Below, piece by piece: positions 314 to 49,956 of a stretch of 64,000 nucleotides of DNA. A program made the translations under genes and the position numbers. A model generated the notes under the pieces. That model worked only from the letters and a program-made list of their open reading frames with translations, made no database searches and had not been told where the DNA came from. Source of the DNA: a phage. The stretch lies in sequence record PZ154895.1; one strand, 5' to 3'. Position 1 is the stretch's first letter; each line of letters starts with the position of its first letter.

Positions 314-343
314 GTTTACAACAAGTTCAAACTGTGGTATTAT
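314..343 (+). promoter_or_regulatory. T4-type early promoter (GTTTACA, 17-18 nt spacer, TGnTATTAT)
   Basis: GTTTACA at 314-320, extended -10 TGGTATTAT at 335-343, about 30 nt before ATG 374. Confidence 0.6.
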
Positions 344-556: not shown

Positions 557-842
557 AACGTATCGTCGTAAAGATTTAAAAGTACGTGATTATGACTATT
601 TTGGAAAGCGCAAAGCTCCTGATGGTGTAAGTCATAAAGATATGGTTGAAAACATTTTTCGCTCTGATAAATGGCGTAGAATGAAAGGCATTGATTCAGA
701 AGTTAAAGATGAGCTAAATCGTCAATTACGTAGTGAAGTAAGAAAGTTGAAAAAATCAGTTTACATTGACGATGATTTTGATTATAATACTTCTCAACGA
801 GTTGCTAAGCGTAAATCAAACGAGTGCTATCGTTACAGCTGA
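549..842 (+). CDS. hypothetical basic protein, 97 aa
   Basis: ATG 549 overlaps stop of upstream ORF; track ORF 504 trimmed to this ATG. Confidence 0.4.
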   Translation: MGKTYRRKDLKVRDYDYFGKRKAPDGVSHKDMVENIFRSDKWRRMKGIDSEVKDELNRQLRSEVRKLKKSVYIDDDFDYNTSQRVAKRKSNECYRYS

Positions 843-4859: not shown

Positions 4860-5000
4860 ATGATATTTCTTGGATATGTGATACTTTTTCTAGCGTTTTA
4901 TTTGTTCACCAGAGCATGTTGGATTGGGTTCTTTAGTACTCCAGATGGATTTATTTCAATAATTTTATTTTGCATTTCAATGACGGTTCTTGATATATGA
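4860..5000 (+). CDS. hypothetical small hydrophobic protein, 46 aa
   Basis: GGAG RBS, ATG 4860; single predicted TM helix; not in track. Confidence 0.3.
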   Translation: MIFLGYVILFLAFYLFTRACWIGFFSTPDGFISIILFCISMTVLDI

Positions 5001-5620
5001 AAAAATATATAACTTATTTAACAATATATAGTGGAGATAAACTTCCTCCTTTTTATATTGGATCTACATCTTTAGACAGGCATTTAGCCGGATATCATGG
5101 ATCAGTTTTATCTAAAAAGTATAAGAAAATTTATAATGAAGAACTTTCAAATAACCCACATTTATTTGATTCATGCATTTTAGATGAATTTGATACACGC
5201 GAAGAAGCTATTAAATGCGAGCTATATTATCAACGTTTGCATGATGCGGTTAAAAATCCATTATTCTTTAATATGTCATATGCTGCTCCAAAAGGTTCAT
5301 TTGGAAGAGATATTAAAGGACAAAATCATCCATTATATGGTTCTCATAATTGTAAAGGAAACATACATTCACATGACCCATTAACAGGAAAATCTGCCTT
5401 TTTACCGTATATTCCAGAAGGTTATGTAAAAGGAAGGTCAAATAAATTTAAAGCTTCATCACATAATAAAGGTAAAAAATGGTATAATAACGGAGTTAAG
5501 CAAATGTTATGTCATGAACCTCCTGGTCCTGAATGGACAAAAGGAAAAATTAAAGAACTAGTTTCAAAAGCAGCTAAATTAGGATGGAAAAGACACCATG
5601 AAAATACTAAACTTGGGTGA
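4997..5620 (+). CDS. Seg-like (degenerate GIY-YIG) freestanding endonuclease
   Basis: 207 aa; N-terminal ITYL...PPFYIGST...R..H block and E..YYQ..NP.FFN block; paralogous to ORF 61737-62369. Confidence 0.5.
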   Translation: MKKYITYLTIYSGDKLPPFYIGSTSLDRHLAGYHGSVLSKKYKKIYNEELSNNPHLFDSCILDEFDTREEAIKCELYYQRLHDAVKNPLFFNMSYAAPKGSFGRDIKGQNHPLYGSHNCKGNIHSHDPLTGKSAFLPYIPEGYVKGRSNKFKASSHNKGKKWYNNGVKQMLCHEPPGPEWTKGKIKELVSKAAKLGWKRHHENTKLG

Positions 5621-7064: not shown

Positions 7065-8749
7065 AGAATTTTAAACTAAACCGAGTTAGGTATCAAAATA
7101 TAATGTCAGTAGGTGGAAATCCTATTGACATTCAACTAGATAAGGTTCAAAAAACTCTTATTACTGGGCGAAATGGTGGTGGTAAGTCTACTATGTTAGA
7201 AGCCATCACATTTGGGCTTTTTGGCAAGCCATTTCGTGATGTAAAGAAAGGTCAATTAATAAACAGCACAAATAAGAAAGAACTTTTAGTTGAACTGTGG
7301 ATGGAATATGATGAGAAAAAGTACTATATCAAAAGAGGACAAAAACCAAACGTTTTCGAAATCACCGTTAACGGTACACGTCTTAATGAATCTGCCAGCA
7401 GTAAAGATTTCCAAGCAGAATTTGAACAGCTTATCGGAATGTCATATGCCAGTTTCAAGCAGATTGTTGTCCTTGGTACAGCAGGGTATACCCCTTTCAT
7501 GGGTTTGTCGACCCCTGCGCGAAGAAAGCTTGTGGAAGACCTGCTCGAGGTAGGAACATTAGCTGAAATGGATAAGCTTAATAAAGCACTAATACGTGAA
7601 TTAAATTCACAAAACCAAGTGCTTGATGTTAAAAAAGATAGTATTATCCAACAAATTAAAATATATAATGATAACGTTGAACGCCAGAAAAAATTAACTG
7701 GTGATAACCTTACTCGTCTGCAGAACATGTATGATGATTTGGCAAAAGAAGCTAGAACGTTAAAATCGGAAATAGAAGAAGCTAATGAAAGATTAGTTAA
7801 TATTGTTTTGGATGAAGACCCGACTGATGCATTTAATAAAATCGGTCAAGAAGCATTTTTAATTAAATCAAAAATTGACTCGTATAATAAAGTCATTAAT
7901 ATGTATCACGAAGGTGGATTATGTCCAACCTGTTTGTCACAATTAAGTTCCGGTGATAAAGTTGTTTCTAAAATTAAAGATAAAGTTTCTGAATGCACGC
8001 ATTCATTTGAACAGCTTTCAACACATCGTGATAATTTAAAAGTTCTTGTTGATGAATACCGAGATAATATTAAAACCCAGCAGACGTTGGCAAATGATAT
8101 TCGCAATAAAAAGCAATCCTTAATCACGACGGTAGATAAAGCTAAAAAAGTTAAAGCGGCTATAGAAAAAGCATCATCTGAGTTTATTGACCATGCTGAT
8201 GAAATAGCACTGCTTCAAGAAGAACTTGATAAAATTGTTAAGACAAAAACTAATTTAGTAATGGAAAAATACCACAGAGGAATTTTGACTGATATGCTCA
8301 AAGATTCTGGTATTAAAGGTGCTATTATTAAAAAGTACATTCCATTATTTAATAAGCAGATTAACCATTATCTTAAAATAATGGAAGCGGATTATGTGTT
8401 TACATTAGATGAAGAATTTAATGAAACAATTAAATCCCGTGGTCGTGAAGATTTTAGTTATGCTTCATTTAGTCAAGGTGAAAAAGCACGAATTGATATT
8501 GCTCTTTTATTTACTTGGCGTGATATTGCTGAAAAAGTTTCAGGTGTTAAAATAAGCTGTTTATTTCTTGATGAAGTATATGACGGTGCATTTGATGCTG
8601 AAGGTATTAAAAATGTAGCTAAAATTTTAGATGGTTTGAAGGATACCAACTTCTTCATAATTTCGCATAAAGACCATGACCCACAAGAATATGGTCAGCA
8701 TATTCAGATGGAAAAAGTTGGTAGATTTAGTTTAGCTAAGATTAGCTAG
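7061..8749 (+). CDS. 46: gp46 recombination nuclease subunit (SbcC/Rad50-like ATPase)
   Basis: 562 aa, GTG start; Walker A GRNGGGKST, zinc hook CPTC, coiled coil, Walker B LFLDE. Confidence 0.93.
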   Translation: MKNFKLNRVRYQNIMSVGGNPIDIQLDKVQKTLITGRNGGGKSTMLEAITFGLFGKPFRDVKKGQLINSTNKKELLVELWMEYDEKKYYIKRGQKPNVFEITVNGTRLNESASSKDFQAEFEQLIGMSYASFKQIVVLGTAGYTPFMGLSTPARRKLVEDLLEVGTLAEMDKLNKALIRELNSQNQVLDVKKDSIIQQIKIYNDNVERQKKLTGDNLTRLQNMYDDLAKEARTLKSEIEEANERLVNIVLDEDPTDAFNKIGQEAFLIKSKIDSYNKVINMYHEGGLCPTCLSQLSSGDKVVSKIKDKVSECTHSFEQLSTHRDNLKVLVDEYRDNIKTQQTLANDIRNKKQSLITTVDKAKKVKAAIEKASSEFIDHADEIALLQEELDKIVKTKTNLVMEKYHRGILTDMLKDSGIKGAIIKKYIPLFNKQINHYLKIMEADYVFTLDEEFNETIKSRGREDFSYASFSQGEKARIDIALLFTWRDIAEKVSGVKISCLFLDEVYDGAFDAEGIKNVAKILDGLKDTNFFIISHKDHDPQEYGQHIQMEKVGRFSLAKIS

Positions 8750-9458
8750 GTTTATATTTACAGTTATCATTATGCCATCTTGATAAATTTCCGAAAGTGG
8801 TAACTTTACCACAATGGACGCAAGTACCAGTCTTTTCAGTTTTCTTGCGTCCATTTGGATTTTTCTTGCAGAAATTTCTATGCGCTGCGATAACGCATTT
8901 CTTGCCTATCATTCCACAGAATTCGCAGGATGTTTCTTCAAGAACGATTGCTTTAAGCCCGTTTGAGATATTATTTCTGTGTTCTTTAGACATTGGTGGT
9001 CTAACTTTAGGATTAGGGTGATTTGGACAGTTATCAAAATGCCAACGATTCATATTCCCGCTTAATCCAGACTTACCGCAATGAGGACAAGTTAGTCTTG
9101 CTTTATTAGCTACTGCATCAGACATTTTCTTTCGTGTCTCCTGGGAGAATTCTTTGTTCTTTTCTATTTCCCAGAGTTTACGACGAATCCAACCGAAAGT
9201 TTTATTGTTGCGTTTAGCGTATTTCGTGGAAACTGTCATCATGTTAGCAGCATAGACTAATTTTGGTTCAGAAGGATAAATTTTTACTAAAAGTTGATGA
9301 GCTACATAGTGCTCTTCTGGCGTTAAATCTACTAAGTTTGAAGCATCATCACTACCGTTTAAACAGCGTGGTATAATGTGATGAGATTCAGTATAGCAAT
9401 CAAGTTTTCGAGATTTAGCATTAGAGATTAACTTTTCATAAATTAGTTTATAATTCAT
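8742..9458 (-). CDS. HNH homing endonuclease with three C-terminal CxxC...W..DNC zinc-finger repeats
   Basis: 238 aa; HNH motif ESHHIIPRCLNGSDDASNLVDLTPEEHYVAH; opposite strand to flanking genes. Confidence 0.7.
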   Translation of the reverse strand: MNYKLIYEKLISNAKSRKLDCYTESHHIIPRCLNGSDDASNLVDLTPEEHYVAHQLLVKIYPSEPKLVYAANMMTVSTKYAKRNNKTFGWIRRKLWEIEKNKEFSQETRKKMSDAVANKARLTCPHCGKSGLSGNMNRWHFDNCPNHPNPKVRPPMSKEHRNNISNGLKAIVLEETSCEFCGMIGKKCVIAAHRNFCKKNPNGRKKTEKTGTCVHCGKVTTFGNLSRWHNDNCKYKPS

Positions 9459-12788: not shown

Positions 12789-12789
12789 T

Positions 12790-13011
12790 ATGACTGCTAT
12801 AACCCCGCAAGAATACATGGCGTCTCTTAAAGAAAAATATAATCTTTCTGCAACAGAAACACTTTTTGATTTACCAGAAAATCTCCAACTAAAATTTCAG
12901 GTAGAATTTCAAAAATTAGTTCACCCAGAACAAAAACACTTTACCGCAGTGGTTAAGTCAATTAATGCAGATGGATTGACAATTTTTCACCGACAAATGG
13001 TATTAATTTAA
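12790..13011 (+). CDS. hypothetical protein, 73 aa
   Basis: Track ORF 12748 trimmed to ATG 12790. Confidence 0.45.
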   Translation: MTAITPQEYMASLKEKYNLSATETLFDLPENLQLKFQVEFQKLVHPEQKHFTAVVKSINADGLTIFHRQMVLI

Positions 13012-13089: not shown

Positions 13090-15786
13090 ATGAAAGAATT
13101 TTATATCTCTATCGAAACAGTCGGAAATAATATTGTTGAGCGTTATATTGATGAAAACGGAAAGGAACGTACTCGTGAAGTAGAATATCTTCCGACTATG
13201 TTTAGGCATTGTAAGGAAGAGTCAAAGTACAAAGACATTTACGGTAAAAATTGCGCTCCTCAAAAATTTCCATCAATGAAAGATGCACGAGACTGGATGA
13301 AGCGAATGGAAGACATCGGTCTCGAAGCTCTTGGTATGAACGATTTTAAACTCGCTTATATCAGTGATACATATGGTTCAGAAATTGTTTATGACCGAAA
13401 ATTTGTTCGTGTAGCTAACTGTGACATTGAGGTTACTGGCGATAAATTTCCTGACCCAATGAAAGCAGAATATGAAATTGATGCTATCACTCATTATGAT
13501 TCAATTGACGACCGTTTTTACGTCTTTGATTTGTTGAATTCAATGTACGGTTCAGTATCAAAATGGGATGCAAAGTTAGCTGCTAAACTTGACTGTGAAG
13601 GTGGTGATGAAGTTCCTCAAGAAATTCTTGACCGAGTAATTTATATGCCATTTGATAATGAGCGTGATATGCTCATGGAATATATTAATCTCTGGGAACA
13701 GAAACGACCTGCTATTTTTACTGGTTGGAATATTGAGGGATTTGACGTTCCGTATATCATGAATCGCGTTAAAATGGTTCTTGGTGAACGTAGTATGAAA
13801 CGCTTCTCTCCAATCGGTCGAGTAAAATCTAAACTAATTCAAAATATGTACGGTAGCAAAGAAATTTATTCTATTGATGGCGTATCTATTCTTGATTATT
13901 TAGATTTGTACAAGAAATTCGCATTTACTAATTTGCCATCATTCTCTTTGGAATCAGTTGCTCAACATGAAACCAAAAAAGGTAAATTGCCGTACGATGG
14001 TCCTATTAATAAACTTCGTGAGACTAATCATCAACGATACATTAGTTATAACATTATTGACGTAGAATCAGTTCAAGCAATTGATAAAATTCGTGGGTTT
14101 ATCGATCTAGTTTTAAGTATGTCTTATTATGCTAAAATGCCTTTTTCTGGTGTAATGAGTCCTATTAAAACTTGGGATGCTATTATTTTTAACTCACTGA
14201 AAAGTGAACATAAGGTTATTCCTCAACAAGGTTCGCACGTTAAGCAGAGTTTTCCAGGCGCATTTGTGTTTGAACCTAAACCGATTGCCCGTCGATACAT
14301 TATGAGTTTTGACTTGACATCTCTGTATCCTAGCATTATTCGTCAGGTTAACATTAGTCCTGAGACTATTCGTGGACAGTTTAAAGTTCATCCAATTCAT
14401 GAATATATCGCAGGAACAGCTCCTAAGCCAAGTGATGAATATTCTTGTTCTCCGAATGGATGGATGTATGATAAGCACCAAGAAGGTATCATTCCAAAGG
14501 AAATCGCTAAAGTATTTTTCCAGCGTAAAGATTGGAAAAAGAAAATGTTCGCCGAAGAAATGAATGCCGAAGCTATTAAAAAGATTATTATGAAAGGTGC
14601 AGGGTCTTGCTCAACTAAGCCAGAAGTTGAACGATATGTTAAGTTCAGTGATGATTTCTTAAATGAATTATCGAATTACACCGAATCTGTTCTTAATAGT
14701 CTGATCGAAGAATGTGAAAAAGCAGCTACACTTGCTAACACAAATCAGCTGAACCGTAAAATTCTTATCAACAGTCTTTATGGTGCTCTTGGTAATATTC
14801 ATTTCCGTTACTATGATTTGCGAAATGCTACTGCTATCACAATTTTTGGTCAAGTTGGTATTCAGTGGATTGCTCGTAAAATTAATGAATATCTGAATAA
14901 AGTGTGTGGAACTGATGGTGAAGATTTCATCGCAGCAGGTGATACTGATTCGGTATATGTTTGTGTAGATAAAGTAATTGAAAAAGTAGGTCTTGACCGC
15001 TTTAAAGAACAAAATGATTTAGTTGAATTCATGAATCAGTTTGGTAAGAAAAAGATGGAACCTATGATTGATGTTGCATATCGTGAGTTATGTGATTATA
15101 TGAATAACCGCGAGCATCTGATGCATATGGACCGTGAAGCTATTTCTTGCCCTCCACTCGGTTCAAAGGGTGTTGGTGGATTTTGGAAAGCGAAAAAACG
15201 TTATGCTCTGAACGTTTATGATATGGAAGATAAGCGATTTGCTGAACCACATCTAAAAATCATGGGTATGGAAACTCAACAGAGTTCAACACCAAAAGCA
15301 GTGCAAGAAGCTCTCGAAGAAAGTATTCGTCGTATTCTTCAGGAAGGTGAAGAGTCTGTCCAAGAATACTATAAGAACTTTGAGAAAGAATACCGTCAAC
15401 TTGACTATAAAGTTATTGCTGAAGTAAAAACCGCGAACGATATAGCAAAATATGACGATAAGGGTTGGCCAGGATTTAAATGTCCGTTCCATATTCGTGG
15501 TGTGCTAACTTATCGTCGAGCTGTTAGCGGTTTAGGTGTAGCTCCAATTTTGGATGGAAATAAGGTAATGGTTCTTCCGTTACGTGAGGGAAATCCATTT
15601 GGTGACAAGTGTATTGCTTGGCCGTCGGGCACAGAACTTCCAAAAGAAATTCGTTCTGATGTACTGTCTTGGATTGACTACTCAACTTTGTTCCAAAAAT
15701 CGTTTGTTAAACCGCTTGCGGGCATGTGTGAATCGGCAGGTATGGACTATGAGGAAAAAGCTTCGTTAGACTTCCTGTTTGGCTGA
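13090..15786 (+). CDS. 43: gp43 DNA polymerase (family B, proofreading)
   Basis: 898 aa, same length as T4 gp43; MKEFYISIETVGNNIVERYIDENGKER...; no intein or intron. Confidence 0.97.
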   Translation: MKEFYISIETVGNNIVERYIDENGKERTREVEYLPTMFRHCKEESKYKDIYGKNCAPQKFPSMKDARDWMKRMEDIGLEALGMNDFKLAYISDTYGSEIVYDRKFVRVANCDIEVTGDKFPDPMKAEYEIDAITHYDSIDDRFYVFDLLNSMYGSVSKWDAKLAAKLDCEGGDEVPQEILDRVIYMPFDNERDMLMEYINLWEQKRPAIFTGWNIEGFDVPYIMNRVKMVLGERSMKRFSPIGRVKSKLIQNMYGSKEIYSIDGVSILDYLDLYKKFAFTNLPSFSLESVAQHETKKGKLPYDGPINKLRETNHQRYISYNIIDVESVQAIDKIRGFIDLVLSMSYYAKMPFSGVMSPIKTWDAIIFNSLKSEHKVIPQQGSHVKQSFPGAFVFEPKPIARRYIMSFDLTSLYPSIIRQVNISPETIRGQFKVHPIHEYIAGTAPKPSDEYSCSPNGWMYDKHQEGIIPKEIAKVFFQRKDWKKKMFAEEMNAEAIKKIIMKGAGSCSTKPEVERYVKFSDDFLNELSNYTESVLNSLIEECEKAATLANTNQLNRKILINSLYGALGNIHFRYYDLRNATAITIFGQVGIQWIARKINEYLNKVCGTDGEDFIAAGDTDSVYVCVDKVIEKVGLDRFKEQNDLVEFMNQFGKKKMEPMIDVAYRELCDYMNNREHLMHMDREAISCPPLGSKGVGGFWKAKKRYALNVYDMEDKRFAEPHLKIMGMETQQSSTPKAVQEALEESIRRILQEGEESVQEYYKNFEKEYRQLDYKVIAEVKTANDIAKYDDKGWPGFKCPFHIRGVLTYRRAVSGLGVAPILDGNKVMVLPLREGNPFGDKCIAWPSGTELPKEIRSDVLSWIDYSTLFQKSFVKPLAGMCESAGMDYEEKASLDFLFG

Positions 15787-15799
15787 TAGAATAAATCTA

Positions 15800-15820
15800 G
15801 GGACCTCCGGGTCCCTTTTT
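15800..15820 (+). terminator. intrinsic terminator GGGACC-TCCG-GGTCCC-TTTTT
   Basis: Directly after gene 43. Confidence 0.8.
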
Positions 15821-15903
15821 CATACAAGTAATATAAATCTATACTTAGGAAAAATAGATGATTCTAGGTCCTGTAAATTCATTAAAAATTTTTTCACAAA
15901 ACT

Positions 15904-15933
15904 GTTTACATCCCCGTTCTTCCATGGTACTAT
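15904..15933 (+). promoter_or_regulatory. T4-type early promoter cassette
   Basis: GTTTAC 15904-15909, 18 nt, TGGTACTAT; near-identical copy at 63326-63366. Confidence 0.6.
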
Positions 15934-15967
15934 ACAACTATCAACTGATATGGATTTGGAGAATAAA

Positions 15968-16204
15968 ATGAAAATTGTTTATGGTTGTTTAGCAGTGTGT
16001 TTAGTTGCATTAGCAACTGTTCCATTTATTGATATTGAAAATGACACTCAGAATGTGATTGAATCTAATACTATTATTCACATGAATGGTAAAGTATCAA
16101 CAAAAATTGATGATAATCTTCATATGAATACTAATGGAACGTTGGGTGTTCAATTAGGTAATACCTGTGTAAGCACTACTGGAGTAATTACTACTTGTAT
16201 TTGA
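15968..16204 (+). CDS. hypothetical secreted or membrane protein, 78 aa
   Basis: TTGGAGAATAAAATG leader; N-terminal hydrophobic signal-like segment. Confidence 0.45.
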   Translation: MKIVYGCLAVCLVALATVPFIDIENDTQNVIESNTIIHMNGKVSTKIDDNLHMNTNGTLGVQLGNTCVSTTGVITTCI

Positions 16205-20192: not shown

Positions 20193-21620
20193 GTGGTAGA
20201 AATTATTCTTTCTCATCTCATATTTGATCAAGCTTATTTTTCAAAAGTTTGGCCATATATGGATTCAGAATATTTTGAAAGTGGTCCAGCTAAAAATACA
20301 TTCAAATTAATTAAATCTCATGTTAATGAATACCATAGCGTTCCATCTATTAATGCGTTAAATGTTGCATTAGAAAATAGTTCATTTACTGAAACAGAAT
20401 ATTCTGGTGTAAAAACACTTATTTCAAAACTGGCCGATTCTCCGGAAGACCATAGCTGGTTAGTAAAAGAAACAGAAAAATATATTCAGCAAAGGGCGAT
20501 GTTTAACGCCACATCTAAAATAATTGAAATTCAAACTAATGCTGAGCTTCCTCCGGAAAAACGAAATAAGAAAATGCCAGATGTAGGTGCTATTCCTGAC
20601 ATCATGCGCCAAGCATTATCAATTTCATTTGATAGCTACGTTGGTCATGATTGGATGGATGACTACGAAGCACGTTGGCTATCTTATATGAATAAAGCTC
20701 GTAAGGTTCCATTTAAACTCAAAATTCTAAATAAAATTACTAAAGGCGGAGCTGAGACTGGAACACTGAACGTTTTAATGGCTGGTGTTAACGTTGGTAA
20801 GTCATTAGGATTGTGTTCATTGGCAGCAGATTATTTGCAGCTCGGACACAATGTTCTTTACATTTCCATGGAAATGGCAGAAGAAGTCTGCGCTAAGCGT
20901 ATTGACGCTAACATGCTCGATGTTTCTCTTGATGACATTGATGATGGGCATATTTCTTACGCTGAATATAAAGGAAAAATGGAAAAATGGCGTGAGAAAT
21001 CTACTCTTGGACGTTTAATCGTTAAACAGTATCCTACTGGTGGAGCAGACGCTAATACATTTCGGTCGCTTTTAAATGAATTAAAGCTCAAGAAGAATTT
21101 TGTTCCAACAATCATTATTGTTGACTATCTGGGTATTTGTAAATCTTGCCGCATTAGAGTTTATTCAGAAAATAGTTACACAACTGTTAAAGCCATCGCA
21201 GAAGAATTGCGTGCTCTGGCTGTTGAAACCGAAACTGTTCTTTGGACTGCAGCACAGGTTGGTAAGCAAGCTTGGGATTCTTCTGATGTTAACATGAGCG
21301 ATATTGCAGAATCTGCCGGTCTTCCAGCAACAGCCGATTTTATGCTTGCGGTCATTGAAACCGAGGAGTTAGCAGCTGCTGAACAACAACTCATTAAGCA
21401 AATCAAATCACGATACGGTGATAAGAATAAATGGAATAAGTTTTTGATGGGTGTTCAAAAAGGAAATCAGAAATGGGTAGAAATTGAACAAGATTCTACT
21501 CCAACTGAAGTGAACGAAGTAGCAGGTTCACAGCAGATTCAGGCTGAACAGAATCGCTATCAAAGAAACGAATCCGCTCGAGCTCAGTTAGATGCTTTGG
21601 CAAATGAATTAAAATTTTAG
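20193..21620 (+). CDS. 41: gp41 replicative DNA helicase (DnaB-like)
   Basis: 475 aa, GTG start; MVEIILSHLIFDQAYFSKVW... matches T4 gp41; Walker A GVNVGKS. Confidence 0.95.
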   Translation: MVEIILSHLIFDQAYFSKVWPYMDSEYFESGPAKNTFKLIKSHVNEYHSVPSINALNVALENSSFTETEYSGVKTLISKLADSPEDHSWLVKETEKYIQQRAMFNATSKIIEIQTNAELPPEKRNKKMPDVGAIPDIMRQALSISFDSYVGHDWMDDYEARWLSYMNKARKVPFKLKILNKITKGGAETGTLNVLMAGVNVGKSLGLCSLAADYLQLGHNVLYISMEMAEEVCAKRIDANMLDVSLDDIDDGHISYAEYKGKMEKWREKSTLGRLIVKQYPTGGADANTFRSLLNELKLKKNFVPTIIIVDYLGICKSCRIRVYSENSYTTVKAIAEELRALAVETETVLWTAAQVGKQAWDSSDVNMSDIAESAGLPATADFMLAVIETEELAAAEQQLIKQIKSRYGDKNKWNKFLMGVQKGNQKWVEIEQDSTPTEVNEVAGSQQIQAEQNRYQRNESARAQLDALANELKF

Positions 21621-21657
21621 TTTACAAGCCGACAAGACTATGGTATAGTAGTCTTGT
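21620..21657 (+). promoter_or_regulatory. early promoter with inverted repeat around the -10
   Basis: Stop TAG fused to GTTTAC (21620-21625); -10 TATAGT 21644-21649 inside stem ACAAGACTA/TAGTCTTGT (21632-21657). Confidence 0.55.
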
Positions 21658-21678
21658 TGGTTAAATGAGGAGATTTTT

Positions 21679-21862: not shown

Positions 21863-22120
21863 ATGCATATTGTTTTATTTAAACCTACTCCGTATAACGT
21901 CAGGAAAAATACTCAATTCAAAGCACTTATCGCAGATACGTGGGAATTGGTATTAGATATTCCAGCAGAAGAAAGCCCTCCATTTGGTCGAGTGGAATTT
22001 ATTAAGTTTGCTGTGCGCCCTACGAAGCGACAGATTCGTCAATGCAAAAGATACTTTCGTAAAATCGTCAAGTTAGAGAAACAGTTTGTAACATGTGATT
22101 ATACAGAAGTTTTAAAATAG
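21863..22120 (+). CDS. hypothetical protein, 85 aa (61.4 position)
   Basis: ATG 2 nt after dmd stop; track ORF 21821 trimmed. Confidence 0.45.
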   Translation: MHIVLFKPTPYNVRKNTQFKALIADTWELVLDIPAEESPPFGRVEFIKFAVRPTKRQIRQCKRYFRKIVKLEKQFVTCDYTEVLK

Positions 22121-22122
22121 TA

Positions 22123-22164
22123 GTTTACAAGCTGATAGAGTTGTGTTATAGTAATTCTATCAGC
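22123..22164 (+). promoter_or_regulatory. early promoter with inverted repeat around the -10
   Basis: TAG-GTTTAC fusion; -10 TATAGT 22147-22152 between GCTGATAGA and TCTATCAGC. Confidence 0.55.
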
Positions 22165-22183
22165 TAATCGCGGAGAAAAGAAA

Positions 22184-22438
22184 ATGATGCTAGTTAATAG
22201 AGAATATCAGTTTAAATCAGAAGAAGATTTGGAAAAATTCGCGAGTGGTTGTGAACTGAATAGACGCACAGCTAAAGTCATAGGATTAAAACCCTTTACA
22301 GTTCTAGATTGTGAAGTTTCTAAATTCCGCAGAGGGTGTTCTATTAGCAGTCATGCTCTGGTTGATGGGAACACATTTTTCTTTGTTTTTAGCGTCAGAG
22401 AACTTTTATTGATTAACGAACTTGAGGAAATAAAATAG
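22184..22438 (+). CDS. hypothetical protein, 84 aa
   Basis: ORF downstream of early promoter. Confidence 0.45.
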   Translation: MMLVNREYQFKSEEDLEKFASGCELNRRTAKVIGLKPFTVLDCEVSKFRRGCSISSHALVDGNTFFFVFSVRELLLINELEEIK

Positions 22439-22502
22439 TTTACTTTTGTTTTAAACATGTTATTATAGACCTATCAAAACAAACGAGTAAATGGAGAATA
22501 AA

Positions 22503-22682
22503 ATGTCTAAAGTATCAGGTTATCAATTATTAACACAAGAACAACGTTCAGAGATGGATTCTTTACAAGAACGGTGTCAGCATAGAAATAACGCACTTGA
22601 TTCATTTTTATTAATTGAATATGAAAACTTGTGCTCTAGACTTGAAAAAGAATATGTTCATCAACATGGAGGAGAAGAATGA
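22503..22682 (+). CDS. hypothetical protein, 59 aa
   Basis: GGAGAATAAAATG leader; track ORF 22491 trimmed. Confidence 0.4.
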   Translation: MSKVSGYQLLTQEQRSEMDSLQERCQHRNNALDSFLLIEYENLCSRLEKEYVHQHGGEE

Positions 22683-22730
22683 AACTGAAATCACCAATTA
22701 TTGTAATTTGTCTGTTTGCTTCTACTAGTG

Positions 22731-22760
22731 TTTACTTTTGTTGAAAATTGAGATACTATA
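22731..22760 (+). promoter_or_regulatory. early promoter upstream of sp
   Basis: GTTTAC 22731-22736, 18 nt, TACTAT 22755-22760. Confidence 0.5.
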
Positions 22761-26100: not shown

Positions 26101-26105
26101 ATTCA

Positions 26106-26130
26106 AGGACTCCTCCGGGAGTCCTTTTTT
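26106..26130 (+). terminator. intrinsic terminator GGACTCC-TCCG-GGAGTCC-TTTTTT
   Basis: Directly after soc. Confidence 0.8.
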
Positions 26131-28242: not shown

Positions 28243-28272
28243 GTTTACTTTCCTTCCTAACAATGATATGAT
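28243..28272 (+). promoter_or_regulatory. early promoter upstream of modB
   Basis: CACAAAGTTGTTTAC cassette (as at 301-320), 18 nt, TATGAT. Confidence 0.5.
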
Positions 28273-28298
28273 AGCTTCTGAAGTATATGGAGGCTATC

Positions 28299-28922
28299 AT
28301 GATTATTAATCTTGCAGATGTTGAACAATTATCTATAAAAGCTGAAAGCGTTGATTTTCAATATGATATGTATAAAAAAGTCTGTGAAAAATTTACTGAC
28401 TTTGAACAGTCAGTTCTTTGGCAATGTATGGAAGCCAAAAAGAATGAAGCTCTTCATCGGCAGTTGAATAAAATCGTTAAAAAGCATTTAACTAAATCGC
28501 CTTATCAGTTATATCGTGGTATATCAAAATCGACAAAAGAACTCATTAAAGATTTACAAGTTGGAGAAGTGTTTTCAACGAACAGAGTAGATTCATTTAC
28601 TACTAGTTTGCATACAGCGTGTTCTTTTTCTTATGCTGAATATTTCACTGAAACAATACTTCGCTTAAAAACTGATAAAGCTTTTAATTACTCTGACCAT
28701 ATCAGCGATATTATACTTTCTTCTCCTAATACTGAGTTTAAGTATACATATGAAGATACTGATGGATTAGATTCAGAACGTACTGATAACTTAATGATGA
28801 TTGTGCGTGAACAAGAATGGATGATTCCAATTGGAAAGTATAAAATAACTTCTATTTCAAAAGAAAAATTACACGATTCATTTGGAACATTTAAAGTGTA
28901 TGATATTGAGGTAGTTGAATGA
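28299..28922 (+). CDS. modB: ADP-ribosyltransferase ModB (by position, size and motifs)
   Basis: 207 aa; ART-like Arg / S-T-S / EQEWMIP motifs; tandem with paralogue. Confidence 0.6.
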   Translation: MIINLADVEQLSIKAESVDFQYDMYKKVCEKFTDFEQSVLWQCMEAKKNEALHRQLNKIVKKHLTKSPYQLYRGISKSTKELIKDLQVGEVFSTNRVDSFTTSLHTACSFSYAEYFTETILRLKTDKAFNYSDHISDIILSSPNTEFKYTYEDTDGLDSERTDNLMMIVREQEWMIPIGKYKITSISKEKLHDSFGTFKVYDIEVVE

Positions 28923-29577: not shown

Positions 29578-29607
29578 GTTTACAAGCTAAAGTAAAAATG
29601 ATATAGT
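29578..29607 (+). promoter_or_regulatory. early promoter upstream of srd
   Basis: GTTTAC 29578-29583, 18 nt, TATAGT. Confidence 0.5.
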
Positions 29608-33203: not shown

Positions 33204-33233
33204 GTTTACTTCCTCGGTTAGTTGTGGTATTAT
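33204..33233 (+). promoter_or_regulatory. early promoter
   Basis: GTTTAC 33204-33209, 18 nt, TGTGGTATTAT. Confidence 0.5.
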
Positions 33234-33260
33234 AACACCATAGCTACTGAGGATAATAAA

Positions 33261-33763: not shown

Positions 33764-34306
33764 ATGAAATTTAATTATAATCCTGAATACATACCAAATC
33801 CGGTAGCTAAACTGATTGATTTTGATGTTGTAAGCACTTATGTATGCCCTGTTAAACCATTGGAAATTAAGGAACCTACTATGACTACCGCTATTGAAAT
33901 CGGCAAAACCTACAAACTGGTTGAACCTGAAATTAAAACTAATGCCTTGATTTCCGGCCATAAAACTCTGACTGATGTTTTTGGTGAAGGCGAATTTACT
34001 GTTGAAGACTTTGAAAAAAGTAAATGGTTTACTAAATCTTATATTGTCCACGGTCGTCGTTTAGACAATAACAAAATAGAGAAAATCCTGGTTTATGAAG
34101 CAGAGTTCATCCTGTTCCAAGAAGTTGAAGAACAAGACCCTACAGACCTTCTAACTCGTGCGGTAGCTATCAAGACTCCATTTATTTCAGTCTGTGGTTG
34201 GGTAACAGACCAATGGATTGAAGATGGCGTTGAACTTCTGAACGTTGTTCATGCAGGTGATTTTAGCGTAGTACCTCGTAGTGCAGTGGTAGCTATTTTG
34301 AATTAA
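33764..34306 (+). CDS. hypothetical protein, 180 aa; paralogue of downstream MotB-like ORF
   Basis: C-terminal TDQWIEDGVELLNVV shared with ORF 34383-34880 (TDQWVEDGVKLYNAV). Confidence 0.5.
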   Translation: MKFNYNPEYIPNPVAKLIDFDVVSTYVCPVKPLEIKEPTMTTAIEIGKTYKLVEPEIKTNALISGHKTLTDVFGEGEFTVEDFEKSKWFTKSYIVHGRRLDNNKIEKILVYEAEFILFQEVEEQDPTDLLTRAVAIKTPFISVCGWVTDQWIEDGVELLNVVHAGDFSVVPRSAVVAILN

Positions 34307-34308
34307 TA

Positions 34309-34344
34309 GTTTACAAACTCTTGGGACCAGAGTATAATGGTCCC
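34309..34344 (+). promoter_or_regulatory. early promoter with inverted repeat around the -10
   Basis: TAG-GTTTAC fusion; TATAAT 34333-34338 inside GGGACCA/TGGTCCC stem. Confidence 0.55.
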
Positions 34345-34880: not shown

Positions 34881-34977
34881 AGTTTAAAATTTTTTCATAA
34901 AACTATATACATCAGTAGTTGATTATGGTACTATATCAATATCAACTACTGATACAGAAAACAACTTGGAGAATAAA

Positions 34978-36732: not shown

Positions 36733-36782
36733 CTTTATGATTACCGGAGTATAATATTCCCGAAACCAAACGAGGATAAGTG

Positions 36783-38600
36783 ATGATTAAGAATGAAATT
36801 AAAATTCTGAGCGATATTGAACATATCAAAAAGCGTAGCGGCATGTACATTGGTTCTTCTGCTAATGAAATGCATGAGCGCTTTCTGTTTGGTAAATGGG
36901 AAAGTGTTCAGTATGTACCTGGTCTTGTTAAGCTTATTGATGAAATTATCGATAACTCAGTAGATGAAGGTATTCGTACTAAGTTTAAATTCGCAAATAA
37001 AATTAATGTTACTATTAAAAACAATCAAGTAACAGTTGAAGATAACGGTCGTGGTATTCCGCAGGCGATGGTTAAAACACCTACTGGTGAAGAAATTCCT
37101 GGTCCAGTTGCTGCATGGACTATTCCAAAAGCAGGTGGTAACTTCGGTGATGATAAAGAACGCGTCACTGGTGGTATGAACGGTGTTGGTTCTAGTTTAA
37201 CTAACATTTTTTCTGTGATGTTTGTCGGTGAAACTGGTGATGGTCAAAATAATATTGTAGTTCGTTGTTCAAACGGCATGGAAAATAAATCGTGGGAAGA
37301 TATTCCTGGAAAATGGAAAGGAACTCGCGTTACTTTCATTCCTGATTTTATGTCATTTGAAACTAATGAGCTATCTCAAGTTTATCTTGACATTACACTG
37401 GATCGTCTCCAGACACTTGCAGTAGTTTATCCTGATATTCAATTTACATTTAATGGTAAAAAGGTTCAGGGTAATTTTAAGAAATATGCACGCCAATATG
37501 ATGAACATGCTATTGTTCAAGAACAAGAAAATTGTTCTATTGCGGTCGGTCGTTCACCTGATGGTTTTCGTCAATTAACATACGTCAATAACATTCATAC
37601 TAAGAATGGTGGCCATCATATTGACTGTGTTATGGATGATATTTGTGAAGACCTTATTCCACAAATCAAACGTAAATTCAAAATTGATGTAACTAAAGCA
37701 CGTGTTAAAGAATGCTTGACTATCGTTATGTTTGTTCGTGATATGAAAAACATGCGATTTGATTCTCAAACTAAAGAGCGTTTGACTTCTCCATTTGGTG
37801 AAATCCGTAGTCATATTCAGCTTGATGCTAAAAAGATTTCACGTGCTATTTTGAATAATGAAGCAATTTTAATGCCAATTATTGAAGCTGCATTGGCTCG
37901 TAAATTGGCGGCAGAAAAAGCAGCTGAAACTAAAGCAGCTAAAAAGGCCTCTAAAGCTAAGGTTCATAAACATATTAAAGCGAATCTTTGTGGTAAAGAT
38001 GCTGACACTACTCTTTTCTTGACTGAGGGTGATTCTGCTATCGGATATCTTATTGATGTTCGTGATAAAGAACTTCATGGCGGTTATCCATTGCGTGGTA
38101 AAGTTCTCAACAGTTGGGGTATGTCATATGCTGATATGCTTAAAAACAAAGAACTGTTTGATATTTGCGCAATCACTGGATTAGTTCTTGGTGAAAAAGC
38201 CGAAAACTTGAATTATCATAATATTGCTATTATGACTGATGCTGACCATGATGGTCTAGGAAGCATTTATCCTTCTCTGCTCGGATTTTTTAGTAATTGG
38301 CCAGAATTGTTTGAACAAGGAAGAATTCGCTTTGTCAAAACTCCTGTAATCATCGCTCAGGTCGGTAAAAAACAAGAATGGTTTTATACAGTCGCTGAAT
38401 ATGAGAGTGCCAAAGATGCTCTACCTAAACATAGCATCCGTTATATTAAAGGACTTGGCTCTTTGGAAAAATCTGAATATCGTGAGATGATTCAAAATCC
38501 AGTATATGATGTTGTTAAACTTCCTGAGAATTGGAAAGAGCTTTTTGAAATGCTCATGGGAGATAATGCTGACCTTCGTAAAGAATGGATGAGCCAGTAG
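36783..38600 (+). CDS. 39: gp39 topoisomerase II large subunit, uninterrupted (GyrB-like, includes the part encoded by gene 60 in T4)
   Basis: 605 aa single ORF; GHKL ATPase and TOPRIM motifs; C-terminus ...MGDNADLRKEWMSQ. Confidence 0.93.
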   Translation: MIKNEIKILSDIEHIKKRSGMYIGSSANEMHERFLFGKWESVQYVPGLVKLIDEIIDNSVDEGIRTKFKFANKINVTIKNNQVTVEDNGRGIPQAMVKTPTGEEIPGPVAAWTIPKAGGNFGDDKERVTGGMNGVGSSLTNIFSVMFVGETGDGQNNIVVRCSNGMENKSWEDIPGKWKGTRVTFIPDFMSFETNELSQVYLDITLDRLQTLAVVYPDIQFTFNGKKVQGNFKKYARQYDEHAIVQEQENCSIAVGRSPDGFRQLTYVNNIHTKNGGHHIDCVMDDICEDLIPQIKRKFKIDVTKARVKECLTIVMFVRDMKNMRFDSQTKERLTSPFGEIRSHIQLDAKKISRAILNNEAILMPIIEAALARKLAAEKAAETKAAKKASKAKVHKHIKANLCGKDADTTLFLTEGDSAIGYLIDVRDKELHGGYPLRGKVLNSWGMSYADMLKNKELFDICAITGLVLGEKAENLNYHNIAIMTDADHDGLGSIYPSLLGFFSNWPELFEQGRIRFVKTPVIIAQVGKKQEWFYTVAEYESAKDALPKHSIRYIKGLGSLEKSEYREMIQNPVYDVVKLPENWKELFEMLMGDNADLRKEWMSQ

Positions 38601-38629
38601 TTTACTTTACCACAAGGATGTGGTATAAT
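38600..38629 (+). promoter_or_regulatory. early promoter
   Basis: TAG-GTTTAC fusion with gene 39 stop; 18 nt; TGTGGTATAAT. Confidence 0.55.
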
Positions 38630-38868: not shown

Positions 38869-41046
38869 ATGATTATCACCACTGAAAAAGAAACAATTCT
38901 TGGTAATGGTTCTAAATCAAAAGCATTTAGCATCGCAGCAAATCCTAAAGTATTTAAAATTCTATCATCTGATTTGTATACAAACAAGATTCGTGCAGTA
39001 GTCCGTGAATTGATTACCAACATGATTGATGCCCATGCTCTCAATGGAAATCCTGAAAAATTTATCATTCAAGTTCCAGGACGATTAGATCCGCGATTTG
39101 TTTGTCGAGATTTTGGTCCGGGTATGAGCGATTTTGATATTCAGGGTGATGATAATTCTCCTGGGTTGTATAATTCATACTTTAGTTCATCTAAGGCTGA
39201 ATCTAACGATTTCATTGGCGGATTTGGTTTAGGTTCTAAATCCCCGTTTAGTTATACTGATACATTCAGTATTACTTCATATCATAAAGGCGAAATTCGC
39301 GGTTATGTAGCTTACATGGATGGTGACGGTCCGCAAATTAAACCTACATTCGTAAAAGAAATGGGTCCAAATGATAAAACTGGTATTGAAATCGTAGTTC
39401 CAGTTGAAGAAAAAGATTTTAGAAACTTTGCTTATGAAGTTTCTTATATCATGCGACCATTCAAAGATTTAGCTATCATTAACGGTCTTGACCGCGAAAT
39501 TGATTATTTTCCGGATTTTGATGATTATTACGGCGTAAATCCAGAAAGATACTGGCCAGATCGCGGTGGATTGTATGCTATCTATGGCGGCATTGTTTAT
39601 CCTATCGAAGGTGTTATTAGAGATCGTAACTGGTTAAGCATCCGCAATGAAGTGAATTACATTAAGTTTCCAATGGGTTCACTTGATATTGCTCCATCAC
39701 GCGAAGCTCTTTCATTAGATGATCGTACTCGTAAAAATATTATTGAGCGTGTTAAAGAGCTTAGTGAAAAGGCATTCAATGAAGATGTAAAACGATTTAA
39801 AGAATCTACATCTCCTCGTCATACATACCGTGAATTGATGAAGATGGGATATTCTGCTCGAGATTATATGATTAGTAATTCAGTCAAATTTACGACTAAA
39901 AATCTGTCATATAAGAAGATGCAGAGCATGTTTGAACCTGATAGTAAACTATGCAATGCAGGAGTTGTGTATGAAGTAAATCTTGACCCTCGACTGAAAC
40001 GCATTAAGCACAGCCATGAAACTTCAGCCGTTGCATCAAGTTATCGTCTGTTTGGTATTAATACGACAAAAATTAATATTGTTATTGATAATATTAAAAA
40101 TCGTGTTAATATTGTCCGTGGATTAGCACGTGCATTAGATGATAGCGAATTTAATAACACCTTAAATATTCATCACAATGAACGCCTTTTGTTTATTAAT
40201 CCGGAAGTAGAATCACAGATTGATTTGCTTCCTGATATTATGGCAATGTTTGAAAGTGATGAAGTTAACATTCATTATTTGTCAGAAATTGAGGCTTTAG
40301 TTAAAAGTTATATTCCAAAGGCAGTAAAAAGTACAGCTCCTCGTCCTAAAACTGCTACTGCATTTAAGTTTGAAATTAAAGACGGGCGTTGGGAAAAAGA
40401 GGAACTGTTTACACTTACGTCAGAAGCAGATGAAATTACTGGTTATGTAGCATACATGCATCGTTCTGATATTTTCTCTATGGATGGTACTACATCGCTT
40501 TGTCATCCATCTACGAATATTTTGATTCGTATGGCTAATCTTATTGGCATTAATGAATTTTATGTTATTCGTCCGCTTTTACAGAAAAAGGTAAAAGAAC
40601 TTGGTCAGTGCCAATGTATTTTTGAAACTCTACGTGATTTATATGTAGATGCTTTTGACGATGTAGATTATGATAAGTATGTAGGTTATTCAAGTTCAGC
40701 TCAGCGATATATTGATAAAATTATTAAGTATCCTGAACTTGATTTTATGATGAAATATTTCAGTACAGATGAAGTTTCCGAAGAATATACTCGCCTTGGT
40801 AATATGGTTAGTTCATTGCGGGGCGTATATTTCAATGGTGGAAAAGATACCATCGGTCATGACATCTGGACCGTAACTAATCTTTTTGATGAATTATCAC
40901 GTAATGCTTCAAAAAACAGTGATAAAATGGTTGCTGAGTTTACCAAGAAATTCCGTATTGTTTCCGACTTCATCGGTTATCGCAATTCTTTAAGTGATGA
41001 TGAAGTTTCCCAAATCGCTAAAACTATGAAGGCCCTTGCGGCCTAA
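38869..41046 (+). CDS. rIIA: rIIA protein
   Basis: 725 aa; [20 protein letters not shown]... matches T4 rIIA; same length. Confidence 0.95.
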
Positions 41047-41057
41047 TAAGGAAAATT

Positions 41058-41996
41058 ATGTACAATATTAAATGCCTGACCAAAAACGAACAAGCTGAAA
41101 TTGTCAAACTGTATTCAAGTGGTAATTACACCCAACAGGAATTGGCTGATTGGCAAGGTGTATCGGTTGATACAATCCGTCGTGTTTTGAAAAATGCTGA
41201 AGAAGCTGAGCGCTCCAAAGTTACCATTAACGGTGACATTACAGTTGAAGTTAAGAGCGATGTAGCTATTGCTCCAGTTGCTAAATCTGACATTATTTGG
41301 AATGCATCTAAAAAATTCATTTCAATTACTGTTGACGGTGTAACTTATAACGCAACTCCTAATACTCATTCAAACTTCCAAGAAATTCTTAATCTGCTTG
41401 TTGCAGATAAATTGGAAGAAGCAGCGCAAAAAATTAACGTTCGTCGCGCTGTTGAAAAATATATTTCCGGCGATGTTCGAATTGAAGGTGGAAGCTTGTT
41501 CTATCAAAACATTGAATTGCGGTCTGGTTTAGTTGATCGTATTCTCGATTCGATGGAAAAAGGCGAAAACTTTGAATTTTATTTTCCGTTCTTGGAAAAT
41601 CTGCTGGAAAACCCAAGCCAAAAAGCGGTATCTCGACTCTTTGATTTCTTGGTAGCAAACGATATTGAAATTACAGAAGACGGCTACTTCTATGCTTGGA
41701 AAGTAGTTCGCAGCAATTACTTTGACTGTCACTCAAATACCTTTGATAACAGTCCTGGTAAAGTAGTTAAAATGCCACGTACTCGTGTAAATGACGATGA
41801 TACACAAACTTGTTCTCGTGGTCTGCATGTGTGTTCTAAATCTTATATTCGTCACTTTGGCAGTTCAACCAGCCGAGTTGTAAAAGTTAAAGTACATCCT
41901 CGCGATGTAGTATCAATTCCGATTGATTACAACGATGCTAAAATGCGTACCTGCCAATATGAAGTAGTCGAAGACGTTACTGAACAATTTAAATAA
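41058..41996 (+). CDS. rIIB: rIIB protein
   Basis: 312 aa; MYNIKCLTKNEQAEIVKLYSSGNYTQQELADWQGVSVDTIRRV... matches T4 rIIB. Confidence 0.95.
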   Translation: MYNIKCLTKNEQAEIVKLYSSGNYTQQELADWQGVSVDTIRRVLKNAEEAERSKVTINGDITVEVKSDVAIAPVAKSDIIWNASKKFISITVDGVTYNATPNTHSNFQEILNLLVADKLEEAAQKINVRRAVEKYISGDVRIEGGSLFYQNIELRSGLVDRILDSMEKGENFEFYFPFLENLLENPSQKAVSRLFDFLVANDIEITEDGYFYAWKVVRSNYFDCHSNTFDNSPGKVVKMPRTRVNDDDTQTCSRGLHVCSKSYIRHFGSSTSRVVKVKVHPRDVVSIPIDYNDAKMRTCQYEVVEDVTEQFK

Positions 41997-42309: not shown

Positions 42310-42867
42310 ATGCAGAAAACAAATCCGGGTTTACAGAGACTATTTCAGATTCCGACATTTATCCTATCGAACGGTGACTTGACTAGTGAAATGAAGGTCA
42401 AAATTGCTGATACAGCAAGATACTCTTTAAAACAAAATCCTAATCAGGATAAAGCAGAAGTCATCGAAAGATGCCGTATCGCTGTGTATGCAGAGTTTTT
42501 TGTAGCAGATTGGCTGAGCGGGTATGTTAACAAAGGCCAAGAGGATGTTAATGACCCGTATACATACGCATGGGATGTATTGGCGCATCCAAGATATTGC
42601 GGGCTTCGTGTAGAAGTTAAGACACACCAAACTGACTCACGTTGGATTTCTGTAACAACCGGATGCAGCGGAGAGTATCCATATGGTTCTGGAATAAATC
42701 TAGGGCCCATTCTAAATCATCAAGTCGCTGACTGTATAATTATATTCAACACTAAAGAAATTCATCCAGGTGTCATCCAGTACACTCCGAAGTTCATCGG
42801 TGACAGAGAAGACCTTCGTAAGGTTGTAAGAAAAAGCAACTACAACGGATGGTATCTTTCCATTTAA
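42310..42867 (+). CDS. denB: DenB endonuclease IV (by size and position)
   Basis: 185 aa ORF next to rIIB, as in T4. Confidence 0.75.
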   Translation: MQKTNPGLQRLFQIPTFILSNGDLTSEMKVKIADTARYSLKQNPNQDKAEVIERCRIAVYAEFFVADWLSGYVNKGQEDVNDPYTYAWDVLAHPRYCGLRVEVKTHQTDSRWISVTTGCSGEYPYGSGINLGPILNHQVADCIIIFNTKEIHPGVIQYTPKFIGDREDLRKVVRKSNYNGWYLSI

Positions 42868-42885
42868 AAAAAATTTCACAAAACA

Positions 42886-42915
42886 GTTTACATACCACAA
42901 GGACTGTGGTACTAT
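42886..42915 (+). promoter_or_regulatory. early promoter cassette
   Basis: GTTTAC 42886-42891, 18 nt, TGGTACTATAC. Confidence 0.55.
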
Positions 42916-42942
42916 ACAACTATCAGCTACGGAGGAGTAAAA

Positions 42943-43391: not shown

Positions 43392-43421
43392 GTTTACAAG
43401 ACTGTTCTTCCGTGGTACTAT
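43392..43421 (+). promoter_or_regulatory. early promoter cassette
   Basis: GTTTAC 43392-43397, 18 nt, TGGTACTAT. Confidence 0.55.
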
Positions 43422-43449
43422 TACCCTATCAACTACGGAGGAACAGAAA

Positions 43450-46463: not shown

Positions 46464-46468
46464 TTTTA

Positions 46469-49938: not shown

Positions 49939-49956
49939 AGACCCTCCTTTTTAAGA

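Follow-up and report, generated by a model that had tools for sequence, protein, structure and literature searches.

Genomic setting of the repeated promoters

The window analysed here is a 64,000-nucleotide stretch of phage DNA. More than 490 Tequatrovirus genomes are matched by a 2-kb probe around the cassette, with identities of 90-98% and in every case on the minus strand of the record. As the matches lie on that strand throughout, the window can be identified as a T-even phage sequence that is reverse-complemented relative to the T4 map. The following landmarks were located.

13090-15786: gene 43
20193-21620: gene 41
36780-38600: gene 39, unsplit
38869-41996: rIIA/rIIB
49282-59469: tail-fibre genes, minus strand
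62425-63381: gene 32

Gene 39 is present as one ORF of 606 aa (36780-38600), without the gene 60 split, mobA or the 50-nt translational bypass of T4. A 219-bp insertion at 12789-13007, between regA and gene 43, is missing in T4, KNP1, phiD1 and the close viral contigs compared, and its product is a member of the RB18 ORF43.1 family (PF25760, E 3e-29). Three segments, at 4997-5620 (+), 8742-9458 (-) and 61737-62369 (+), are insertions relative to some relatives and resemble homing-endonuclease genes: weak matches to GIY-YIG and to HNH are given by one segment each, while the remaining one, an ORF of 210 aa, occupies the position of segG in T4 and is missing in KNP1 and phiD1.

A promoter-like sequence built around GTTTAC recurs along the plus strand of the window. 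The copies and the features beside them are listed below.

314-343 (+): early promoter at the nrdH/55.6 junction, with canonical UP element, GTTTACA, TGG and TATTAT; no hairpin (z +0.5); T4 orthologue at 41706
15882-15950 (+): cassette 3' of gene 43 and a terminator (15799-15816), of the TGGTACTATACAACTATC subfamily; no hairpin
15968-16204: extra ORF downstream of the 15882-15950 cassette; imm.1 also lies downstream
21618-21660 (+): dmd promoter; the TAG of gene 41 overlaps GTTTACA, and the hairpin loop holds the -10, TATAGT
22118-22165 (+): 61.4 stop and a tandem TAG that overlaps GTTTACA; hairpin AGCTGATAGA/TCTATCAGCT around the -10, TATAGT
22436-22466 (+): stop-fused promoter TAGTTTACT with a 16-bp spacer and TATTAT, between ORFan 1 and ORFan 2
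22730-22759 (+): promoter upstream of sp; its core, GTTTACTTTTGTT, is the crossover site in RB5 and L027
26105-26170 (+): soc/mrh.2 junction; a terminator hairpin with T-run (26105-26126) adjoins the promoter GTTTACT-N17-TATAAT
28243-28301 (+): modB promoter; the -10 (TATGAT) and the next bases pair with the modB SD and AUG
29578-29607 (+): early promoter at the modA/srd junction; no hairpin
33204-33253 (+): promoter after dexA; in a strong hairpin, the spacer and -10 are paired to the leader that follows, the SD GAGGA included
34304-34344 (+): motB promoter; TAA and a tandem TAG that overlaps GTTTACA; GGGACCA/TGGTCCC around the -10, TATAAT
34883-34950 (+): subfamily member located between motB and the ORF that follows it; its -35 is degenerate (ATATACA)
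38598-38629 (+): the TAG of gene 39 overlaps GTTTACT; spacer hairpin TACCACA-AGGA-TGTGGTA (z -2.4)
42865-42935 (+): subfamily cassette after denB; spacer hairpin TACCACA-AGGAC-TGTGGTA
43392-43445 (+): promoter of the ndd.5/ndd.4 region; CTTCC in the spacer pairs with the SD GGAGG
46468-46521 (+): half cassette upstream of motA; terminator stem GGGAGAGCC/GGCTCTCCC, then spacer, TGG TACTAT and ACAACTATC
48948-48977 (+): asiA promoter, inside the asiA.1 ORF
59515-59544 (+): promoter upstream of rnh
63325-63381 (+): deletion junction 63325/63326; frd.3 promoter with GTTTACA at 63329 and TACTAT at 63353

Identification of the repeats as T4-type early promoters

A preliminary description of this DNA had listed 13 sites, and a GTTTAC box followed by a -10-like hexamer is found at 13 of 13 coordinates. 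The spacing proposed for them, GTTTAC-N18-TGGTACTATAC, was in error: as written, it gives 0 matches with up to 2 mismatches. The corrected form is GTTTAC-N15-TGGTA, i.e. TTTACA-N17-TAnnnT, for which 10 matches are obtained when up to 3 mismatches are allowed, all ten on the plus strand, against 0.09 expected. A scan by box and spacing, which replaced a 65-column weight matrix made from the 13 sites that proved over-fitted, returned about 18 good copies on the plus strand, which is the early-gene strand, and nothing of comparable quality on the minus strand. Early-promoter copies absent from the earlier list lie at 22438, 22730, 26141, 34905, 48948 and 46504, the last having been overlooked because its -35 is gone. 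In the 18 plus-strand sites the -35 reads GTTTAC(A/T), the spacer is of 17 bp or, rarely, 16 bp, and the -10 is TAnnnT, preceded in most copies by the TGn of an extended -10. Upstream of copies that are not fused to a stop codon there is a conserved AAAWWTTTTTCACAAAGTT, while in the fused copies the same stretch is coding sequence. When scanned for generic sigma-70 promoters, this A/T-rich genome shows no enrichment (93 matches versus 87.9 expected), and the signal thus belongs specifically to the T4-type motif.

Two full matches to GTTTACA-N17-TAnAAT lie within genes: one at 58987-59016 (+), in coding sequence and antisense within gene 34, with a T4 counterpart at 151291, and one at 759-788 (+), within a plus-strand ORF, with a T4 counterpart at 41261.

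T4 has a GTTTAC promoter at every orthologous junction, in the same orientation and on the early strand, and the products of dmd, modB and motB are early T4 proteins (PMC9697503). The early promoters of T4 consist of UP, -35, TGn and -10 elements together with further conserved positions, giving an unusually long consensus (PMC2988021). The window sites share the UP, -35, TGn and -10 elements, the early strand and the position upstream of early genes with the promoters reviewed by Hinton in 2010 (PMC2988021); embedded hairpins are not discussed in that review, and in promoter function itself there is no difference. The cassette at 15904 is 97% identical across 65 bp to the msp1 promoter of T4, located elsewhere in the T4 genome, for which the depositors annotated -35 and -10 signals. 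Judged from sequence and orthology together, the identity of these sites as promoters is secure. They would be recognised by unmodified host sigma-70 RNA polymerase, presumably with immediate-early timing, and the order of elements would be an A/T-rich UP element, GTTTAC(A/T), a 17-bp spacer, TGn, TAnnnT, a short leader, SD and ATG.

The copies had also been called near-identical. When aligned, they are not so as a group, with a median pairwise identity of 36% outside the promoter core over a background of 27%, and the description suits only a subfamily of five (15904, 34905, 42886 and 43392, with 63329), whose identity outside the core is 58-65%, more than is seen in any random pair. Exact copies of the 18-mer TGGTACTATACAACTATC lie at 15925, 42907, 46504 and 63350, i.e. 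4 times versus 0.04 expected. Of the four sites at 15901, 42886, 43392 and 63329 that were said to share an extended sequence, three do contain this 18-mer, but 43392 differs from it at 4 positions. We considered whether the sites could merely be strong promoters optimised by convergence, alike owing to contacts with RNA polymerase, with incidental inverted repeats and no mobility of cassettes, which appears unlikely. The low identity among copies outside the core would be expected on such grounds, each copy has a positional orthologue among the T4 promoters, and the T4 early consensus is known to be unusually long (PMC2988021); the likeness of spacer and leader within the subfamily, exceeding that of any random pair, and the excess of exact 18-mers speak against convergence.

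Stop codon fusion and hairpins in the window

At some copies, the stop codon of the upstream gene runs directly into the promoter. The TAG codons at four sites had been taken to supply the first bases of the promoter. This is correct at 21618-21620 (gene 41) and 38598-38600 (gene 39), where the true stop overlaps the G of GTTTAC, but at 22121 and 34307 (34306 in the earlier description) the ORF has already been closed, by TAG at 22118 and TAA at 34304, respectively, and the overlapping TAG is an additional stop in the same frame directly after it. A third true overlap, earlier unlisted, is at 22436-22438, where the last base of the TAG that closes the small ORF 22184-22438 is also the G of GTTTAC.

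Inverted repeats that hold the -10 in their loop were confirmed at 21632-40/21649-57 (9 bp), 22131-39/22156-64 (9-10 bp) and 34323-29/34338-44 (7 bp). Folded as RNA, the 21618 hairpin comprises 12-15 bp (21627-21662) at -21.8 kcal/mol (z -6.9), and the corresponding values are -18.0 kcal/mol (z -5.2) for the 22118 hairpin and -19.7 kcal/mol (z -4.6) for that at 34304. All three share a single register, i+j=51 when the G of GTTTAC is position 1, and their loop covers positions 22-29, TGnTAnnn, with its centre between -12 and -11. There is no T-run 3' of these -10-enclosing stems, and for this reason a canonical intrinsic terminator was rejected. The 3' arms at 21620 and 22123 end 3-6 nt short of the SD; as the SD lies beyond the stem, masking of the ribosome-binding site (RBS) is inapplicable at these two sites.

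Other copies fold differently. The spacer hairpins at 38600 and 42886 are weaker than the -10-enclosing type. At 33204 the hairpin reaches -23.1 kcal/mol (z -6.6) with the SD paired in its 3' arm, at 43392 it reaches -22.7 kcal/mol (z -5.1), again with the SD paired, and at 28243 the SD and AUG of modB are paired in a hairpin of -15.4 kcal/mol (z -2.4). These three sites fit a geometry for RBS masking in which the promoter occupies the 5' arm of a hairpin and the SD/AUG its 3' arm. Canonical terminators stand upstream of two copies, immediately 5' of 26141 and about 90 nt 5' of 15904 (15799-15816). Stems are thereby found over the -10 at 21620, 22123 and 34309, in the spacer at 38600 and 42886, and upstream at 26105 and 15799. 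No hairpin was found in the RNA folds of 314, 15904, 29578 and 63329. Overall, about 5-8 of the 18 copies carry a hairpin, and more than half of the promoters are without one.

Comparison with published promoter/stem-loop cassettes

The repeated motif had been likened to T4-type early promoters and to promoter/stem-loop cassettes (PeSLs). This is a correct recognition of known elements, as the PeSL is already published and a subset of the window copies shows its exact anatomy (PMC2839356, PMC4122927). As described for RB49 and phi1 by Arbiol et al. in 2010, a PeSL comprises an upstream stop codon, an A/T-rich stretch, a sigma-70-like promoter, a stem-loop, an SD and an ATG (PMC2839356), and the stem-loop is mostly between -35 and -10 or overlaps the -10 (PMC2839356). 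Promoter activity, terminator activity and mini-circles were shown by experiment for the RB49/phi1 elements, with only an RB49 stem used in the terminator reporter assay (PMC2839356). In the window, the composite of stop, promoter, stem-loop, SD and ATG within about 100 bp fits 21618, 22118, 34304, 38598 and 42865, and does not fit the stemless copies at 314, 15904, 29578, 59515 and 63329. The likeness to the RB49/phi1 elements extends point by point through the anatomy and, most clearly at 61.4-sp, to ORFan modules flanked by cassettes and to excision or insertion between neighbouring cassettes (PMC2839356). The two differ in that RB49 has near-perfect TTGACA/TATAAT boxes and stems made of a G-run and a C-run, whereas the window has a GTTTAC -35 and arms of mixed sequence.

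PeSLs were extended to the T-even pair PST/T4 by Comeau, Arbiol & Krisch in 2014, with the consensus TTTACW-N17-TAYWAT (PMC4122927). These resemble the window copies in phage group, promoter consensus, A/T-rich upstream region and 3' SD and ATG. Small variable ORFs lie nearby in both, e.g. in the ndd.4/ndd.5 region, and half cassettes in which one box is lost were described for PST/T4 (PMC4122927), comparable to the window copy at 46504. According to a figure legend (PMC4122927), the stem-loops of PST lie just upstream of the promoter; in the window three stems instead enclose the -10, and the upstream type is seen at 26105-26126 and 15799-15816.

A further precedent is found in the T4 genes e, soc, 49 and I-TevI, where the promoter sits in the 5' arm of a hairpin and the SD/AUG in the 3' arm (Uzan & Miller 2010, PMC3014915), such that the read-through RNA is masked and locally initiated RNA can be translated (PMC3014915). 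Window sites 33204, 28243 and 43392 share this geometry. The T4 cases use late promoters, whereas the window sites are early, and the hairpins at 21620 and 22123 exclude the SD. Lambdoid morons are similar to the window cassettes in that a single gene with its own promoter and terminator forms an insertable unit, but the sequences on either side of a moron are not repeats of a conserved kind, and exchange is not attributed to them (PMC2839356).

Early expression of the T4 type is known to have its switchboard in these cassettes, which also provide one of the known routes for the swapping of small accessory genes between phages. One more T-even genome with PeSLs adds little. Several observations may nevertheless be useful to specialists: a single register around the -10 that spans genera, the link between stop fusion and embedded stems, RBS-masking hairpins at early promoters, a clean natural four-state exchange of cassette-bounded ORFans, and, on the negative side, the lack of a statistical preference for cassettes over ordinary gene junctions as breakpoints.

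Promoter-embedded stems across T4-like relatives

To place the window hairpins among relatives, 45 gene 41 loci were taken from T4-like viral contigs of several genera, with gp41 identities of 59 to 99%. Many of these loci have a stop-fused GTTTAC promoter with a -10 hairpin right after the gene 41 stop, and the arms are unrelated to those in the window. In 46 T4-like sequences, we found 157 distinct promoter 50-mers on the gene strand and 1 on the other strand. The stop codon of a long upstream ORF lies 0-6 nt before the G in 79 of the 157 promoters, indicating that stop fusion is a general habit of T4-like genomes; an overlapping TAG is seen in 23 of these 79. Stems are commoner where there is a fusion, being present in 31/79 fused and 13/78 unfused promoters (p=0.002).

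Perfect stems of at least 6 bp fall into register 51 in 30 cases among the 157 promoter 50-mers, with 7 each in registers 34 and 35, 5 in register 45 and 0-5 elsewhere, and the 30 register-51 stems have 24 different left arms. Pair counting over 20 cassettes gave 90.8% of cells paired, with double changes in 11 of 12 pairs, and 31-45% in slid-partner controls. Because these 20 cassettes were preselected for stems, the count is partly circular, and the unselected register scan is the fair test. Both the specificity of the enrichment for one register (30 versus 0-7 in any other) and the fact that differing arms stay complementary, with z values down to -6.9, are difficult to reconcile with inverted repeats that are incidental to convergent promoters.

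Folding of promoter 62-mers gave z < -3 for 37%, compared to 2.5% of random 62-mers. Among these strong folds, 56 of 58 straddle the region of the -10 and start, and 27 of 58 pair the SD. The spacer hairpin of the 38598 type is also found in other genera. Likewise, the hairpin that joins the -10 to the SD/AUG recurs with co-varying arms in many of the 45 T4-like loci. Examples are L042:18062, L014:17993, L020:17241, L049:17835 and L026:16376, and the window copy is at 28267-28301; modB as the downstream gene was mapped in the window only. Such a hairpin would limit translation of the downstream gene to transcripts from its own promoter.

Mismatches within stems, read on the sense strand, are G.T in 19 cases and A.C in 6, a count that rests on related sequences and in which 5 of the 19 G.T fall at one pair involving an invariant T of the -10. 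The asymmetry hints that the sense strand is under selection as RNA, but does not count as independent evidence. It also bears on whether the inverted repeats might act as DNA, either as a cruciform or single-strand hairpin that aids melting of the -10, or as recombination or nuclease targets that drive cassette exchange. The centre of symmetry does fall exactly between -12 and -11, where melting starts. A fixed register can, however, be accounted for if the arms fill the sole positions of the promoter that are free of constraint, the excess of sense-strand G.T over A.C suggests that one strand, the sense strand, is what matters, RNA being the simplest case, and the pairing of related hairpins with the SD/AUG is sensible only in RNA. 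We regard a DNA-level role as quite improbable.

An inverted repeat centred on the -10 is also the classic geometry of an operator, and a dimeric DNA-binding regulator that shuts off early promoters might be imagined to bind there. The arms are wholly different even within one genome (ACAAGACTA, GCTGATAGA, GGGACCA and TACCACA), and across genera it is the complementarity, not the sequence, that is conserved. A repressor operator was rejected because one protein could not read all of these arms, and we consider this reading extremely unlikely.

A model for stem-bearing early promoters

Taken together, we consider it probable that the sites are T4-type immediate-early sigma-70 promoters, a subset of which are compact cassettes of the PeSL kind with stems that act on read-through RNA. 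Where there is no intergenic room, the stop codon of the upstream gene would come to abut or overlap the -35. The inverted repeat may then fill only those promoter positions that are free, namely the spacer and the +1 region, and this would place the -10 in the loop. The promoter's own transcript is predicted to start about 7 nt after the -10; with a start at that point, the 5' arm would be present only in read-through RNA arriving from upstream. Promoter-initiated transcripts would remain unstructured, and the hairpin could serve in attenuation or in 3'-end stabilisation of the read-through transcripts. The stems might in effect replace a separate terminator where the upstream ORF leaves no space for one. 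In the variants at 33204, 28243 and 43392, with the SD/AUG in the 3' arm, the ribosome-binding site may be masked in read-through RNA.

More tentatively, the -10 stems, found in one register in several genera, and the SD/AUG hairpins could together constitute a general insulator code of early promoters, although we think this rather doubtful at present. If it were true, the genes concerned would be expressed only from their own immediate-early start, and read-through RNA would be structurally silenced or trimmed. Such a code would extend the logic of the gene e late promoter to the early class, and would account for the commoner occurrence of stems in stop-fused promoters.

Cassettes and the exchange of small ORFs

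The preliminary description had proposed that the cassettes mediate modular shuffling. The window was compared with eight relatives (T4, KNP1, phiD1 and five close viral contigs). Shuffling is clear at 61.4-sp, but breakpoints are not significantly enriched at cassette junctions overall: a breakpoint is present at 9 of the 18 gene junctions that have a cassette and at 29 of the 84 that do not (odds ratio 1.9, p=0.17). Cassettes thus contribute to modular exchange and are not demonstrably preferred sites in this sample, which differs from the picture given for PST/T4.

At 61.4-sp, the window holds two ORFans (22184-22682) and three tandem promoters, at 22123, 22438 and 22730. The ORFans are of 84 and about 59-63 aa, SH-2 is 99.3% identical there, and no Pfam family was found for either product. 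All four states of ORF presence or absence are found at this locus among T-even phages. RB5 and L027 have the first ORFan only, with the junction inside the shared GTTTACTTTTGTT; ECP2301 has the second only, with the junction in the SD; and T4, T2 and RB51 have neither. Coverage of at least 80% of the 61.4-sp stretch is seen in only 17 of 515 matching records, and in a spread sample of 45 records most align over about one third of the stretch, which is the size of the empty form.

These data bear on the convergent-promoter explanation in both directions, as the absence of significant breakpoint enrichment at cassette junctions agrees with it, while a four-state ORF polymorphism with junctions inside cassette cores does not. 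Under the preferred reading of PeSL-kind cassettes, the short conserved cores (GTTTAC... and SD-ATGAAAA) may double as microhomology for the gain and loss of small ORFan modules. Extra ORFs are found directly 3' of the cassettes at 15904, 34905 and 42886, and here the junctions are at ATGAAAA-type starts, not in the promoter; the ORFan downstream of the 42865-42935 cassette (42943-43206) is absent from T4. Most ORF-sized indels are bounded by SD/ATGAAAA microhomology, read by eye at the indel flanks, or by homing-endonuclease genes, and many other indels coincide with homing-endonuclease genes or plain gene boundaries. The endonuclease-like insertions explain several breakpoints that have no cassette.

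Deletions at the gene 32 and motA junctions

One cassette had been thought to have invaded the 3' end of gene 32. The copy at 63329 is indeed inside the gene 32 ORF, but it came to be there through a 77-bp deletion. In T4 and SHBML-50-1, gene 32 ends in ...LLNDL-stop and is followed by a terminator (GGGGACC...GGTCCCC and a T-run), a UP element and the frd.3 promoter. Alignment of the window to these two genomes shows that the loss begins with the final two codons and the stop and extends through the terminator to the end of the UP element, at a clean junction with about 1 bp of microhomology. Invasion by a cassette is excluded, as the -35 and spacer are resident at the locus and differ by one base from SHBML-50-1; the same -35 and spacer are resident downstream of gene 32 in many relatives.

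The extended gp32 is of 318 aa, with its stop at 63379-63381. Its last 18 codons read through the frd.3 promoter, and three cysteines are present in the new 18-residue tail. Across the gap, the match is broken into two pieces in the best of the 532 matching records and, with a single exception, in the 40 that were sampled; none thus appears to share the junction. In phiC600P9 there is an independent, larger deletion at the same site. The 318-aa form may reflect either genuine variation or a fault in the assembly.

A comparable loss is seen upstream of motA, where a 37-bp deletion relative to T4 and phiD1 has removed the T-run of the terminator, the UP element and the -35, leaving the stem, TGn and -10 in the half cassette (46504). 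The deletions at motA and gene 32 would each convert a terminate-and-restart junction into a read-through junction. The short motA allele is common to IME537, Sfk20, SP21535, GEP001, phiC600P9 and others.
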